Positions 10,330 through 46,516 of a stretch of DNA of 64,000 nucleotides are shown here, in pieces; within the stretch, counting starts at the first letter, position 1; the number at the start of each line of letters is the position of its first letter. Under the pieces are notes generated by a model that saw nothing but the letters and a program-made list of their open reading frames with translations, did not search any database and had not been told where the DNA came from. The position numbers were made by a program, and so were the translations under genes. This DNA is from Patescibacteria group bacterium (GTDB taxonomy: Bacteria > Patescibacteriota > Minisyncoccia > Phycocordibacterales > UBA9973), in assembly GCA_028865035.1 (NCBI GenBank), contig JAGWLB010000002.1:49531-113530 (forward strand), written 5' to 3'.

Positions 10330-11367
10330 ATGTCAGAATTAAATATAGCATTATATAGAAAATATCGCCCAGAACGTTTCTCTGATGTGGTAGGGCAGGA
10401 TCATATAGTCAAAGCTATATCTGGCGCCCTTGCTGCTTCTAAGGTTGCCCATGCTTATCTGCTTTCGGGGCCACGTGGTACAGGCAAAACTACTATTGCT
10501 CGCATAGTTGCTCGCGAGTTAGAAACATCAGCCAATGATATCTATGAGATAGATGCAGCCTCAAACAGAGGTATAGATGAAGTTCGTAATATTCGTGAAA
10601 ATGTGAATACTATGCCTTTTGATTCCAAATACAAAGTTTATATTTTGGACGAAGTACATATGTTTACCAAAGATGCTTGGAATGCTCTTCTGAAAACTAT
10701 CGAAGAGCCACCTAAACATGTCATCTTTATCTTAGCAACAACTGAACTAGAAAAAATCCCTGAAACAATTGTTTCTCGATGTCAAACATTTATACTTAAA
10801 AAACCGACAGATATAATACTTTCACAAGTTGTAAAAAATGTTGCTTCTAAAGAAGGTTATGAATTACAAGCTGGAGGAGCAGAGCTTATAGCTGTACTTG
10901 CTGACGGAGCTTTTCGAGATGCTCTAGGTACACTTCAGAAAGTTATCTCCTATAGTAAAAGTAAAAAAATTACAAAGGAAGATATAGAAAAAGTAACAGG
11001 AGCACCAAGTACAACTTTGGTGAATGAATTCTTGGAAGCTTTAGCTTCGAATAATATAGAGAAAGGTTTCTTATCTATCAGACAAGCAAGCGAACAAGAT
11101 ATCGATATGAGTGTATATTTGAAAATGATTCTTACGAAACTTCGCTATGCCCTTATTCTTCGCTACGCACCAGCCGCCAAAGAATCAATAATCAATAGTA
11201 TTTCAGTCGAGGATTTAGAATTTATAGAAAATCTTATATCAACTAAACCTACACATATATCTTCAAATTCACTTTCCATACTGCTTGAAGCATATCAGTC
11301 ACTTAGAACTTCAGTTATAAGTGAAATACCTATAGAACTTGCGTTAGTAAGGATACTTAGCAATTAA
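10330..11367 (+). CDS. dnaX: DNA polymerase III subunit gamma/tau
   Basis: LYRKYRP, GPRGTGKTT, EIDAASN, DEVHM, SRCQ. Confidence 0.97.
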   Translation: MSELNIALYRKYRPERFSDVVGQDHIVKAISGALAASKVAHAYLLSGPRGTGKTTIARIVARELETSANDIYEIDAASNRGIDEVRNIRENVNTMPFDSKYKVYILDEVHMFTKDAWNALLKTIEEPPKHVIFILATTELEKIPETIVSRCQTFILKKPTDIILSQVVKNVASKEGYELQAGGAELIAVLADGAFRDALGTLQKVISYSKSKKITKEDIEKVTGAPSTTLVNEFLEALASNNIEKGFLSIRQASEQDIDMSVYLKMILTKLRYALILRYAPAAKESIINSISVEDLEFIENLISTKPTHISSNSLSILLEAYQSLRTSVISEIPIELALVRILSN

Positions 11368-12483: not shown

Positions 12484-12554
12484 TTGGGGATCGTCTAATG
12501 GTAGGACAGCGGCCTTTGAAGCCGTTAATTGGGGTTCGAATCCCTGTCCCCAAG
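12484..12554 (+). tRNA. tRNA-Gln(TTG)
   Basis: Cloverleaf, anticodon arm gcggc-ctTTGaa-gccgt, GTTCGAAT; CCA not encoded. Confidence 0.96.
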
Positions 12555-12578
12555 CAAAGTGAGCCAAGCGAGATTTGC

Positions 12579-12704
12579 TTGGGGAAGAAAGTGCATTGCA
12601 CTTTCGCCAGGGATGAGAAGACCTTGAGTGTATCGCACGTAGCAAAGCAAGTACGATACGAAAGGCGTACTGAATCTGTAGGATTCGAAACTCCCTGTCC
12701 CAAA
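12579..12704 (+). ncRNA. Structured element carrying antisense and sense copies of the tRNA-Gln 3' end
   Basis: ttgggga..caggga pairs with tccctgtcccaaa; three internal hairpins; same layout as 1071-1188. Confidence 0.6.
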
Positions 12705-12731
12705 GCCAATAATTTGTTTATAGTATTAAAT

Positions 12732-13121
12732 ATGAAAAAAGAAATAAAATTCACAGCTCTATTTGTAAAAGACATAAAAGATTTATTAAAAAGATTCCCT
12801 CCTAAGCATAAGAAAATTTTTGGACATCATTCAACGATTGAATTTCAACCAACTAGTCTAGATGGCATAGAAATAGGAAAAGAATGCAGTATAAAAATAA
12901 TAGGACGAGCTTGGGATGAATTTGGAGATGACCTTCTTGTTGAAAATTTAAAATCTAAAAATAAATACCCCCACATAACCGTGTCCCGAGCAGATAATGC
13001 TCCACCACTGTACTCAAAAATACTATTTGAAAAAACTGATATAGAATACTTTGATAATGAAGAAGTTAGGGTTATTGAAGGATATTCAGATGGGAATAAG
13101 TATATTACACAGAACCTATAG
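12732..13121 (+). CDS. 2H-phosphoesterase-like protein
   Basis: Two HxT motifs (HSTI, HITV); the ORF-track start at 12498 overlaps the tRNA and was trimmed. Confidence 0.6.
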   Translation: MKKEIKFTALFVKDIKDLLKRFPPKHKKIFGHHSTIEFQPTSLDGIEIGKECSIKIIGRAWDEFGDDLLVENLKSKNKYPHITVSRADNAPPLYSKILFEKTDIEYFDNEEVRVIEGYSDGNKYITQNL

Positions 13122-13237
13122 CTGTTCCAACTTCATCCCTGCCTGCGCAGGCAGGCCAGACTGTAAGCCAATAATTTGCTATAATATTAACTTATGGAAA
13201 AGAAAATTATTGTTATAACTTCTGGTATAATATTAAA

Positions 13238-13876
13238 ATGGAAGAACAACTCACTAATTATATTAAGGAAAAGTACAATCCATTAGCCATTGTATTACAT
13301 GGCTCACGTGCAAATGGGTACGCAAAGGAACATTCTGATTGGGACTTTTTAATTTTTACATATAAAGATGTTAACCCCGCAAGAGATATTAAATTTGGTG
13401 CAAATTTTGAAATAAAGCAAGTAATACTTCCTTTGTCTGATAATAAAATTAAGGAAGGTCTTGGTTTTTTATTTAGGACCGAAAATATAAAAATATTATA
13501 TGATAAAGATAGTATTGTTCCTGCTTTGCTTACTAAAAATGAAATAGTAATTGAAAAAGGAGACACGTTCAATGAGGTAGATAAACGTGCTCGATGTGCA
13601 TTTTTAAAATCAAGTTTAGATAGTATTGAAGATTATAAAAATAATGAGTTAATTGTTTTTTCCAAAAAGGCAATATTTTATAATAAGGTTGTGCCTACGT
13701 GGTTTAGATTTCTTCATAACGAATTCAAGCCCTCAGATTATTTAGCTCTACCTCGAATTAAAAGTGATGATCCAGAATTCTATAAATTACTTGAGGAGTT
13801 TATTGATGCAGATGCTGAGCAATCAATTCTTATTGGAAACAAAATGATCAATCATATTTTCTCAGATTTAGATTAA
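13238..13876 (+). CDS. Nucleotidyltransferase domain protein (Pol-beta/MNT-like)
   Basis: HGSRA.G....SDWD motif. Confidence 0.8.
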   Translation: MEEQLTNYIKEKYNPLAIVLHGSRANGYAKEHSDWDFLIFTYKDVNPARDIKFGANFEIKQVILPLSDNKIKEGLGFLFRTENIKILYDKDSIVPALLTKNEIVIEKGDTFNEVDKRARCAFLKSSLDSIEDYKNNELIVFSKKAIFYNKVVPTWFRFLHNEFKPSDYLALPRIKSDDPEFYKLLEEFIDADAEQSILIGNKMINHIFSDLD

Positions 13877-13966
13877 GAATTGTTTCAACTTCGCCTCAGA
13901 CGGTAAGCAAATAAAAACCACCGGAAATAAATTTGGTGGTTTAATAGAAGTTTCATTCAAATAATT

Positions 13967-14452
13967 TTAATCTTGGAATTTTTTGATTGCCTCGATTCTT
14001 ACAGAATCATCAAAAAATTCTTTTGGATTAATTATCCCGAGGTTGTCATCCACTAATTTAATATCAAGAGGTAAGACACCTGCAGTCGGAATAATTCCTC
14101 CGTTACCATCATCTGCACCAAACTTTGAAGAAATAAAATAAATAATTATTGTTTCTTCACCGCCGCATTGTTCAATCATGTAATTTACAATATTTATATC
14201 CTTGTTTGGCCATTTTTTTACCGGACCAATCATAATTATTTCAAAATTTTCAGGCTGATAAAAAAAATTACCAGGATCAGCATTTATAGGAAAATGAAAT
14301 TGTTTACCGGTCAAATCAAAATTTTTTGATTCACCATACCATTGTAACCAAACTTCATTACCATGTTTTTTTTCACGAAATAAGGTTGGTTTTTTTACAA
14401 TTTCTTTGCATGTTTGATGAACGGGCTCGCTCACTGGCTTAACTGTTTCCAT
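13967..14452 (-). CDS. Hypothetical protein
   Basis: 161-aa ORF with upstream TTGACA and downstream terminator, bounded by repeats. Confidence 0.6.
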   Translation of the reverse strand: METVKPVSEPVHQTCKEIVKKPTLFREKKHGNEVWLQWYGESKNFDLTGKQFHFPINADPGNFFYQPENFEIIMIGPVKKWPNKDINIVNYMIEQCGGEETIIIYFISSKFGADDGNGGIIPTAGVLPLDIKLVDDNLGIINPKEFFDDSVRIEAIKKFQD

Positions 14453-14582
14453 AATTTAACATTTTAATGGTTTATTTTATTGTTGGTTTTTCTTTACATT
14501 AACATTTACTACTTATTTGTCAACAATATCGTTTCAACTTCACCCCAGACGGTAAGCCAATAATTTGCTATAATACTAACTT

Positions 14583-15017
14583 ATGGAAAAGAAAATTATT
14601 GTTAGAGCTAGAGCTATTATTTTAAATAATAATAAATTACTAGTAGTAAAGCATTCACATGATTCGAGCTTCGCTGCTTTACCAGGGGGTCACCTTGAAT
14701 GGGGAGAAGATATCAAGGAATGTTTATCTAGAGAAATTGTAGAAGAACTTGGAATAAACCCTGAGATTGGAAGACTACTATATGTTAATAATTTTACAGA
14801 AAAAGATACTGAGCAATCAGTAGAATTTTTCTTTGAAGTTACAAATGGTTATGCGTATAAAGATTTTGAAAATCATACAAGAACACATGCATATGAACTT
14901 GCTGATATACTTTGGATAGAGCCTAACGATCTTGTGAACATTCTACCAAAAGAATTTGAAGAAGATTTTAAATTAGGGAAAATTATTTCTGATCAAGTAA
15001 GATATATACATTCTTAA
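14583..15017 (+). CDS. NUDIX hydrolase
   Basis: Nudix box LPGGHLEWGE...CLSREIVEELG. Confidence 0.93.
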   Translation: MEKKIIVRARAIILNNNKLLVVKHSHDSSFAALPGGHLEWGEDIKECLSREIVEELGINPEIGRLLYVNNFTEKDTEQSVEFFFEVTNGYAYKDFENHTRTHAYELADILWIEPNDLVNILPKEFEEDFKLGKIISDQVRYIHS

Positions 15018-15088
15018 ACAATAAAGATTTAAATGAAATTACTCCAGACTATAAATGAAAAAGATTTTTTCTGTTATAATATATATGT

Positions 15089-43690: not shown

Positions 43691-43808
43691 GACTATATTA
43701 GCATATTATACTCTTCCGAACATCCTCCCAGGTTTGGAGCCATACTTGACAAATTACTTTATATATTATATTTTAGAGTTAAATTGTTAAACTAAAAATT
43801 GAATAATT

Positions 43809-44312
43809 ATGAAAAAAGTTTTTCTTGTTCTTTTAATAACATACTCAATAGTATGTACAGGTTATATTATTTATCTAAAGTCACCTCTCAATGACCATGG
43901 GCATAGACTCTACGGAGTTAAGAATCCAAAAACTATGTTAGTTTTAGATTCAATATTCCGTGATGTAGCTAACCTTCATAGGGATTTGGTCTTTAAGGTT
44001 GGACCGAGTACTCAGGCAATTTACGACAACGGCAGAGTTGGCTTAAATTATATAAGCGACTCAACAGTGGATCTTCCATTATCTGGGCCCAGCTTCGTTG
44101 TCAGTAATCCAGAAGAATCAGCACAAAAAGCCGCTAGGATTCTAACCCGAAATGGATTTAATGCCAGAATTATTGTTAATTTTGACTCAACTTTATCCAA
44201 TAAATTAGTTTTACTTCAAAGTAACTCTATTAATTGGACACTTGTTTTTAGAAGAGATATTCTAAATATGGGCAAGAAACCAAAAGACATAGGTTTCGGA
44301 TGGGCAAAATGA
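43809..44312 (+). CDS. Hypothetical membrane-anchored protein
   Basis: N-terminal TM; own promoter and terminator. Confidence 0.65.
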   Translation: MKKVFLVLLITYSIVCTGYIIYLKSPLNDHGHRLYGVKNPKTMLVLDSIFRDVANLHRDLVFKVGPSTQAIYDNGRVGLNYISDSTVDLPLSGPSFVVSNPEESAQKAARILTRNGFNARIIVNFDSTLSNKLVLLQSNSINWTLVFRRDILNMGKKPKDIGFGWAK

Positions 44313-44477
44313 TTTTCAAAAAAAGATGATTTTTTTATTGAAGGAATCGTGTAACAACGATTCCTTTTTTATTTATCCATATCAACCAAACTCTTCCGAA
44401 CATCCTCCCAGGTTCGGAGCCTAAATTTTAATTTGATTTGTAAGAGGAAAATTGTATAATTAAAGAAAACTTTAGTA

Positions 44478-45125
44478 ATGGAATTAAATGTATCAAAACA
44501 GTATTATGAATCACTTGATTATACTGCCATTTCTTTAATAGAAACCGTTACCCGTTTTAATACTAATTGTGGAAGTATTAACAATATTATATCGACAGAA
44601 GATAACTTTCCTTTGAAAAGGAATCCGGGAGCTAATATTGAAGATTGGAATGGTTTTTTTGTTTCTCGTAATTTTAGATTTTTATTGAAGCTAAATTGTT
44701 TTGGAAAGATAATGGAAATTCCTTACCACAAAAATATTAGCACCCTAATTAGTTGTGCTAGATATGATGAAAAGTTTAATAATGTGGTAATAAATAATGA
44801 TTATTGTCTTAGAAAAGCCAATTTTCTGAAGTCAGTAACAAACCATCAGCTTTTTGGATATCTGTTTTCTAAATCAAATGAGCTATCAATAATGACACTG
44901 GACGATATCAGTTTCCTGTGGATGATTCTAAGTACACTCCTATTTCATGAAAATTTGCTAAATCATGGAGAATGGTGCCACAACGTATTTATGGGTTGGA
45001 AAAGAAATAGTCCTTTAATAGTTCAGAGAATTGGAAAATTATGGCATCTTTCAAATGATGAATTTTATCCTGAACATTCGTATCATGTAAAAGATGAAAC
45101 ATTATTTTTCCCGGTTATCAAGTGA
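44478..45125 (+). CDS. Hypothetical protein
   Basis: 215-aa ORF between repeat sites. Confidence 0.55.
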   Translation: MELNVSKQYYESLDYTAISLIETVTRFNTNCGSINNIISTEDNFPLKRNPGANIEDWNGFFVSRNFRFLLKLNCFGKIMEIPYHKNISTLISCARYDEKFNNVVINNDYCLRKANFLKSVTNHQLFGYLFSKSNELSIMTLDDISFLWMILSTLLFHENLLNHGEWCHNVFMGWKRNSPLIVQRIGKLWHLSNDEFYPEHSYHVKDETLFFPVIK

Positions 45126-45277
45126 TTATAAAGACACCATTTTATTTAACGGTGTCTTTTTAATAATATCTAGAACATTTTCCAATCTTTTCTTAATTTT
45201 ATTCCAATTAGAATTCTGAACTTGTCCACTAAAGCGAGCCAGATAGATTCTCGTTAAAGTTTTGATATAATAAACTT

Positions 45278-45832
45278 ATGAGAAAAATAATTGTACAAGA
45301 AATGATTAGTGTTGATGGATTTTTTGCTGGAGAAAACGGTGAAATAGATTGGCATAATGTGGATGCCGAATTTAATAAATATGCTATTGAATTTCTTAAT
45401 ACCATAGATTCTTTGTTGTTTGGCCGCATTACTTATGAACTCATGGCAAGTTATTGGCCTACAGAAGCTGCTTTAAATGATGACCAAATCGTTGCTTCTA
45501 AAATGAATAATCTTTCGAAAATTGTTTTTTCTAAAACCAGGAATATATTAGAATGGAATAACTCAAAAGTGTTTTCTGAAATTAATGCAGAAGAAATAAA
45601 AAAATTAAAACAAACTGAAGGTAAGGATATTGCCATATTTGGCAGTGGTACTATTGTATCTGAACTTACCAAACTAAGATTAATTGATGAGTATCGGCTT
45701 ATTGTAAATCCTATAGTTCTTGGTAAGGGTAAGTCATTATTTTCATATATAGAAAAAAGATACAAGTTACAGCTCGTAAAAGTAGAAAAGTTTAAATCAG
45801 GAAATGTTTCCCTTCACTACAGTCTTTTATAG
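45278..45832 (+). CDS. Dihydrofolate reductase family (RibD C-terminal) protein
   Basis: SVDGF, LFGRITYE, KIVFS, GKDI.IFGSG, LIDEY.L.V.PIVLG.GK.LF. Confidence 0.92.
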   Translation: MRKIIVQEMISVDGFFAGENGEIDWHNVDAEFNKYAIEFLNTIDSLLFGRITYELMASYWPTEAALNDDQIVASKMNNLSKIVFSKTRNILEWNNSKVFSEINAEEIKKLKQTEGKDIAIFGSGTIVSELTKLRLIDEYRLIVNPIVLGKGKSLFSYIEKRYKLQLVKVEKFKSGNVSLHYSLL

Positions 45833-45929
45833 AATCAATAAGGGTTAAGAACATTTAATAATACTCTTCCGAACATAATCCAAGGTTTGGATCTTGTTAA
45901 TTTTGTAGTAGAGATGTTATATTTCTATC

Positions 45930-46403
45930 ATGGAAGAAAGAGATACAGAAGGAGCTTTTAGATGGATTGTAAATATAATTAAAAAACATAATATACCTTT
46001 TCAGATAAAAGGTGGTTTTGCTTCACGTCTATATGGAGTAAAAAGGGAACTGGCTGATATTGATATATCTATCCCAGAGAATAGATTTGATGAATTAATT
46101 CCTGAAATAAAAGAGTTTATTGTATATGGACCAGAACAATATTTAGATGATGAATGGGATATAAAACTCATAACTCTAACTTACAAAAATCAGGATATAG
46201 ATATAGCAGGAGCATATAAAAAGAAAAACTTTGATAAGATGAACCAGAAATGGGTAAATATACCGACTAACTTTGATACTAGTGTGTATATGGATGTATA
46301 TGGTTTAAATGTACCAGTGATTTCTAAGACAGACCTAATAAATTACAAGAAACTCATTCAAAGAGATGTAGATATATTTGATATTAATGCTTTAAGTAAG
46401 TAA
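45930..46403 (+). CDS. Nucleotidyltransferase-superfamily protein
   Basis: GGFA...YG..R..ADIDI motif; LINYK....R..D..D. Confidence 0.7.
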   Translation: MEERDTEGAFRWIVNIIKKHNIPFQIKGGFASRLYGVKRELADIDISIPENRFDELIPEIKEFIVYGPEQYLDDEWDIKLITLTYKNQDIDIAGAYKKKNFDKMNQKWVNIPTNFDTSVYMDVYGLNVPVISKTDLINYKKLIQRDVDIFDINALSK

Positions 46404-46516
46404 CTTAATATTCTTCAGAACATAGTCTCAGAATTGTAGTTTAGTGAATTTGTAAACGTTATTAATTTTAAATAAGTACTTACATATATGTAAACTTTTA
46501 TGATATAGTCATTGTT

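Follow-up and report, generated by a model that had tools for sequence, protein, structure and literature searches.

The window, a 64-kb stretch on contig C4 of a 735-kb genome assembled in 21 contigs, carries a tRNA-Gln(TTG) gene on the forward strand (12484–12555), behind which short genes alternate with three similar sites. The region is flanked on one side by a gene for an AI-2E transporter and on the other by what we take to be an RmuC-like gene. The 3' end of the tRNA, which would serve as the entry site (the attB-side arm), is followed by a trailer without genes (12556–12706, +) that holds part of the tRNA 3' end in inverted form, hairpins and, at 12681–12706, a direct near-copy of the same end. 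This trailer folds back onto the tRNA-Gln 3' end, and antisense trailers stand at 7 of the 40 tRNAs of the genome (cross-control 1%). The segment made up of tRNA-Gln and array is inverted in some species relative to others, with the same two genes on its flanks (loci L034–L058 compared with the window).

The first cargo gene (12732–13121, +) encodes a predicted 2H-phosphoesterase-like protein of 129 aa with two HxT motifs; it had zero Pfam or NCBIfam matches, and its Atlas features scored 0.97 to clusters in which 14–29% of the members have PF08302. Site 1 (13123–13168, +), comprising a putative element-side arm (P arm) and a core, is split by an 18-nt palindrome at 13138–13155, a REP-like sequence with seven exact copies in the genome. 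Because the palindrome drives its two halves apart, site 1 is likely inactive. An assembly artefact is unlikely, as contigs from public runs span site 1, with the insert unchanged, and most of the array with zero differences. The second cargo gene (13238–13876, +) encodes a Pol-beta-type nucleotidyltransferase of 212 aa (PF18765 and PF01909 above cut-off) and is preceded by a leader (13156–13237, +) that it has in common with the NUDIX unit, at 88% over 82 nt with the first NUDIX codons included. Judged by its sequence, unit 2 has the appearance of a NUDIX unit with exchanged cargo, and since it retains that leader and those codons, new cassettes may arise by cargo replacement inside old ones. 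Site 2 (13881–13908, +; core at 13905–13906) is followed by the reversed third cargo gene (13967–14452, −), which encodes a hypothetical protein of 161 aa and has a terminator-like hairpin at ~13915–13942, beyond its stop codon. Pfam/NCBIfam-type searches of this protein gave no family match and no usable fold emerged; it has homologues in other genomes. Site 3 (14530–14557, +; core at 14554–14555) precedes the gene for a NUDIX hydrolase of 144 aa (14583–15017, +), which opens with the leader known from relatives' NUDIX cassettes and for which the profile described below detected no closing site.

These observations bear out much of the original prediction, in which three sites at these positions were said to part unrelated single genes (2H-like, nucleotidyltransferase, reversed hypothetical and NUDIX), two of them within 5 nt of a stop codon; the distance from the preceding stop is 1 nt for site 1 and 4 nt for site 2. 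The sites end in AAGC, as does the tRNA-Gln gene, and align without gaps with the sites of a tRNA-Asn array, so that the proposed kinship holds as well. A profile trained on 129 sites of other genomes, with this genome's three sites excluded, scored above 10 bits at only 4 of 1,469,136 genome positions, namely sites 1–3 and one position behind a tRNA-Ser on contig C16, which is more than chance would give. The prediction noted no integrase in the window, and no recombinase was found there; the family searches of the whole genome matched contigs C12 and C8 only. On the other hand, a degenerate site suspected at ~15030–15056 found no support, as the best score there was −27 bits and about 0.9 such scores are expected by chance in that gap. 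Nor did the 11-6-11 parse of the site survive as an inverted-repeat core, since the arms agree at just 4/11 positions in sites 2 and 3 and at a mean of 3.5/11 over 132 sites.

Comparison among relatives revealed that the gene content behind tRNA-Gln(TTG) varies while the flanks are constant. The consensus site, with up to three mismatches, occurs in 14 of the 93 genomes of the genus, whereas a reversed control pattern gave 0 matches. In the tRNA-anchored set, 26 downstream sites lie on the tRNA strand and 0 on the opposite strand. Pooling all loci yielded 132 sites and 105 site-bounded units, all of them distinct; kin among them are not independent, and loci were partly collected via the site. 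The units have a median length of 697 nt; 84 contain one ORF, 5 none and 16 more than one. The gene of a single-ORF unit is forward relative to the site strand in 61 cases and reversed in 23, and 29 of the 61 forward genes stop less than 10 nt from the site. Homology between units was rare, with only two pairs among the 105. One pair shares 97% identity between two species, compared with 77–80% for the neighboring core genes; the identity stops at the last bases of the site, that is, at the core, and the left edge is ragged. In the other pair, NUDIX units are homologous over the whole stretch between cores, and their neighbors differ. A homologue of the 2H gene of the window forms the first unit behind tRNA-Asn in another genome (G411), where an Asn-type site closes it; for most of the other homologues of the window's four cargo genes, no adjacent site was apparent by eye.

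Where in such a site would the strands be exchanged? The 22-nt site core (GTTCCAACTTCGTCCCAGACGG) is unchanged even where the host tRNA differs, and only the tail tracks the host. Over 63 tRNA–site pairs (one of which, mis-registered by the site 1 insert, was kept), the site agreed with its own tRNA at nt 71 in a fraction of 0.94 compared with 0.41 for shuffled pairs, at nt 72 in 0.89 compared with 0.75 and at nt 73 in 0.83 compared with 0.69; at nt 70, the agreement was just 0.06 compared with 0.24. Since matching to the own tRNA is found at nt 71–73 and is absent at nt 70, the crossover appears to lie at the tip of the site rather than in a central 6-nt spacer. The idea that a 6-nt spacer is copied from each host tRNA was tried and rejected, because the core is constant where the acceptor stem differs. 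The crossover dinucleotide would accordingly be nt 71–72 of tRNA-Gln (12552–12553, +); its 2-bp length is assumed from serine chemistry, and the matching itself begins at nt 71.

The geometry on either side of this point was also informative. Counted from nt 71 as position 1, conservation over the 132 sites stops at position 24. The outer 9-mer of the site matched the tRNA T-loop best at a shift of 5 nt (0.61), followed by 4 nt (0.52), with all other shifts at 0.28 or below (58 pairs). According to Rutherford et al. (PMC3783163), serine integrases have their zinc-ribbon-domain (ZD) motif at positions 16–24 in attP and 11–19 in attB. By the sequence, the shift test and that geometry, the T-loop 9-mer of tRNA-Gln (nt 53–61; 12534–12542, +) would be the predicted motif at half-site positions 11–19. 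To the right of the core there is weak consensus only, and the junctions of islands that carry a large serine recombinase (LSR) have, by eye, no inverted motif.

Could the sites belong to an LSR? In locus L055 of a relative, tRNA-Gln is followed by an LSR gene with a tail that extends into the tRNA in the antisense direction, by four cargo ORFs and by a site 4.5 kb off. L096 has the same layout at tRNA-Tyr, and its far-end site ends like tRNA-Tyr. The ORF adjoining the LSR gene there (1609–2392) may encode a replication-initiator-like protein, which could supply replication of a circular form. The L055 enzyme has catalytic, recombinase and zinc-ribbon domains (PF00239, PF07508 and PF13408) and the motifs Y-x-R-x-S and C-x-x-C, the same set as in the large serine integrases (Listeria LI/A118 Int, phiC31, Bxb1). 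Translated in the LSR frame, the site reads L-x-V-W-D-E-V-G-T. The 120 top-scoring homologues of the L055 LSR include 8 with a site-encoded tail in the predicted register; most of the others have tRNA-antisense or cut tails. Such site-type tails can also result when a cassette inserts ahead of any LSR island. In a second LSR subfamily, 2 tails were of this type, but most members had a tail peculiar to that subfamily.

In a forward test, we took all 11 loci retrieved from 401 genomes with the C-terminal part of the LSR, the site not being used in the search. In eight of them, a site lies 2.5–6.5 kb beyond the LSR on the tRNA strand, one of these sites falling within a called ORF, and the last four bases of the site equal tRNA nt 71–74 in all six LSR loci with a called tRNA end (CAGC, GCAC, CCGC). 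Among 54 control tRNAs (40 from this genome and 14 other loci, none chosen by the LSR), three had a site within 7 kb (Fisher p 5e-6 against 8/11, with kin not independent); the Gln(TTG) group was excluded from the control because it is enriched for the site (11/25). The three LSR loci without a clear site comprise a remnant (L232), a contig that stops at 5.3 kb (L234) and a weak case (L235). The contigs of three genus loci (L212, L183 and L213) stop too early for a far-end site to show. L228 is an LSR island at the head of a run of 16 listed sites. In L228 (G256:C1) and L107, the arrays and the LSR island stand on a bare tRNA 3'-end fragment with no whole tRNA gene.

These results make it very probable that each 28-nt site represents one half, the P arm on the element side, of an attachment site used by a tRNA-targeting LSR. 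In the mechanism that we propose, the LSR would cut at tRNA nt 71–72, its zinc-ribbon domain reading the tRNA T-loop on one side and the outer 9-mer of the site on the element side. A circle would thereby be inserted with its P arm joined to the tRNA tip, the tRNA would be restored, and each insertion would shift the older units downstream, giving a head-first stack of the form tRNA|unit-P|unit-P. The array behind tRNA-Gln was probably built in this way, as one-gene cassettes without a recombinase entered one after another at the tRNA 3' tip via LSR half-sites, and the units themselves are likely to be true cassettes that are mobile in trans. Their movement would be due to a visiting LSR island or possibly to a resident LSR at tRNA-Ser. 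The NUDIX unit would then have entered first, followed by the reversed gene, the nucleotidyltransferase gene and the 2H gene. In autonomous islands, attP would lie within the LSR gene itself, and integration would alter the tail of the enzyme, which would switch from the site-encoded L-x-V-W-D-E-V-G-T to a peptide read antisense through the tRNA. Furthermore, because the conserved motif is found only in the left arms (the tRNA arm and the P arm), insertion and excision may be chemically near-equivalent. Several findings count against this explanation. The contigs of four public runs (low depth, contigs only) held no recombination joint, no close LSR was found in this genome, some LSR loci lack a clear site, homologous unit pairs are few, and the right-hand arms have no matching motif, which is atypical of serine integrases.

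The main rival accepts the sites as LSR half-sites and takes the units for leftovers of whole islands that have lost the recombinase and most of the cargo; such units would not be self-mobile, and any movement would occur by transformation and homologous recombination. LSR tail remnants at tRNAs in L062, L097 and L225 fit this account, as do the insertion-broken site 1, the NUDIX unit without a closing site and the lack of a close LSR in most array genomes (a close-LSR match was obtained in 7 genomes, and only 2 of these belong to the 14 that bear arrays). We nevertheless consider it rather unlikely: 84 of the 105 units are compact and single-ORF, with stops on the same strand so often abutting the site. 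Moreover, the A that begins 12 of the 14 listed LSR-island junctions starts only about a third of the units, and the 97%-identical unit stops at the core in two species.

The cassettes could also be of a tyrosine-recombinase type, Xer/pdif- or integron-like, with 11-6-11 sites run by the single XerC/D-like enzyme of the genome. The 28-nt length of the sites, the arm symmetry of 7–8/11 in the Asn-type sites and the presence of that one Xer-like gene, which lies on contig C12 and scores 134 with TIGR02249 against a cut-off of 265, speak for it. However, the Gln-type arms are not inverted repeats, the exchange point is the 3' tip of the site and thus outside the 6-nt spacer, and no second tyrosine recombinase was found near any array, in 111 loci or after the metagenome loci were added. 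This possibility is largely refuted and in our view very improbable. Consequently, the original prediction stands as far as it saw a tRNA-anchored cassette array with recombination-type sites, given the varying content, the uniform strand and the recurrence in the genus, but its implied tyrosine or integron type gives way to evidence that points to an LSR acting at tRNA nt 71–72. That the site is instead a transcription-factor operator, a terminator or an RNA-processing signal between accessory genes is scarcely credible, because even though the sites are intergenic and TATAAT promoter-like boxes follow within about 15 nt, their strand is set by the tRNA and not by the gene (23 of 84 single genes are reversed), their final bases track the host tRNA, they occur elsewhere in the genome only at tRNA-Ser and they close LSR islands.

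Which enzyme might act on the cassettes of this genome? The close LSR subfamily, of the L055 type, was not found in it. The two LSRs that it does encode are distant, with 29–30% identity to the L055 enzyme. One of them (contig C12, 201532–203227) lies at a tRNA-Ser(GGA) and is flanked by a 120-nt inverted repeat with 2 mismatches. The inverted copy of the 3' end of this LSR gene shares the tRNA-Ser sequence from exactly nt 71 and joins it to an arm that matches the Gln consensus at 15/23 positions and codes for an analogous tail; a 15/23 match is not rare, as 5 unrelated places in the genome score 16–17. Inversion at this repeat would exchange the C-terminal tail of the LSR. The locus thus shows, within this genome, an architecture like that at L055, and its enzyme is a candidate for action in trans. 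The L055 subfamily, unlike this LSR, had no inverted spare attP in 13 loci. The other LSR is shorter (438 aa), has no tRNA-derived tail and lies in an island with several cargo genes behind tRNA-Glu (contig C8, 19883–26971).

The fourth position found by the profile belongs to a two-gene unit behind tRNA-Ser (contig C16, 10939–13140), which is closed by a related site 2 kb on. The trailer complementary to this tRNA-Ser lies past the closing site, as expected if insertion of the unit had displaced it. The tRNA itself (10939–11026) is called Ser with the anticodon ACT, which is unusual in bacteria, and relatives have the same.

Integrons, including integrase-less CALIN, are single-gene arrays with direct repeats in which the stop codon lies against the site, there is one head site and the enzyme is often missing; their attC sites have inverted R''/R' cores and fold into a hairpin. 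The arrays described here resemble them in their single-gene units, direct repeats, stops abutting the site, proposed growth from a single head site and frequent lack of an enzyme. However, they have no IntI and no attC hairpin, their 28-nt site is without arm symmetry, the chemistry is apparently that of a serine enzyme, roughly one gene in four is reversed and many genes have promoter-like boxes of their own. In a Xer/pdif module, an 11-6-11 site with inverted arms undergoes crossover in the spacer, whereas here the arms are not inverted and the crossover lies outside the spacer. The likeness to the att sites of large serine integrases consists in a 24-bp half-site, close to the roughly 25 bp of those systems, and a 5-bp ZD shift (with the peak at 5 and 4 a close second). 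In contrast to those systems, the target here is the 3' tip of many tRNA types, the attP would lie inside the LSR gene and swap its tail, the motif is in one arm only rather than in a pseudo-palindromic attP, one-gene units are stacked without a recombinase, and viral contigs gave no match.

According to PMC13739063, the Ccr LSRs of SCC insert at the 3' end of rlmH and stack units, some of them without a recombinase. The arrays share with SCC (CcrAB/CcrC) the use of a host gene's 3' end as the LSR insertion point, with the gene kept intact, and the tandem composite units with internal att sites, recombinase-less ones included. CcrA/B are also the best NCBIfam matches of the L055 LSR, yet its scores are far below the cut-offs (101, 89 and 77 bits against 700, 900 and 900). 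In place of the rlmH 3' end with its TATCATAA core, as reported in the same paper, the target here is tRNA-Gln, and in place of multi-kb islands there are one-gene units of about 0.7 kb and a site within the recombinase gene. The tRNA islands treated by Islander (PMC4383910) are described as involving tyrosine integrases, and a displaced tRNA fragment marks the island end; in both cases, the element inserts at a tRNA gene and makes it whole again, whereas only about 4 nt are repeated here. The system is like SCC composite islands in function and like an integron in layout, and it falls outside both. At the abstract level, the literature searched held no description of it, and supplementary att-site tables may hold members; the terms 'tRNA', 'CPR', 'Patescibacteria' and 'tandem' are absent from the main text of PMC10083194.

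If the reading as LSR-inserted cassettes is true, CPR bacteria, small as their genomes are, would have a concrete way of acquiring accessory genes, lining them up and exchanging them that needs no integron, and serine recombinases would join the enzymes that build integron-like arrays one gene at a time. Recognition of the near-universal tRNA T-loop by an LSR family that spares the tRNA and alters its own tail on insertion would be of interest with regard to directionality and as a genome-insertion tool. The short site is a marker that can be scanned for across the phylum. A bolder proposal, which we regard as possible but rather doubtful, is that of a phylum-wide 'serine integron' in Patescibacteria, in which visiting LSR islands read only one arm (tRNA T-loop or P arm) and so could integrate, remove and rearrange single-gene cassettes at the tip of any tRNA with no need for a directionality factor, the tail swap being the direction switch.

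The exact site pattern had 0 matches in 60 relatives, being too strict, and a metagenome pattern with the AAGC tail likewise had 0. A shorter core pattern matched 51 stretches in metagenomes, and a scan for the exact core in one genome per species returned 38. Except for a few unclassified entries labeled 'bacterium' and one bin labeled Gammaproteobacteria, these 38 stretches come from Patescibacteria groups; going by their titles, the site system is a Patescibacteria (CPR) feature in the collections searched. Neither site type was found in viral contigs, nor was any LSR relative with a single-protein query.

A second array lies in the window at 43710–46441, behind tRNA-Asn, with four related sites. 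The Asn-type site recurs in 6 other genomes (300 searched) and reads L-R-T-W-E-D-V-R in the LSR frame. An LSR beside tRNA-Asn in one genome (G004) is at best a doubtful candidate for the cognate enzyme of this type, as it has a recurring tail of its own and a WEDVR-type tail was found in 1 of 120 homologues. In genome G008, Asn- and Gln-type arms are mixed behind a single tRNA-Asn, every one of them ending in GAGC.
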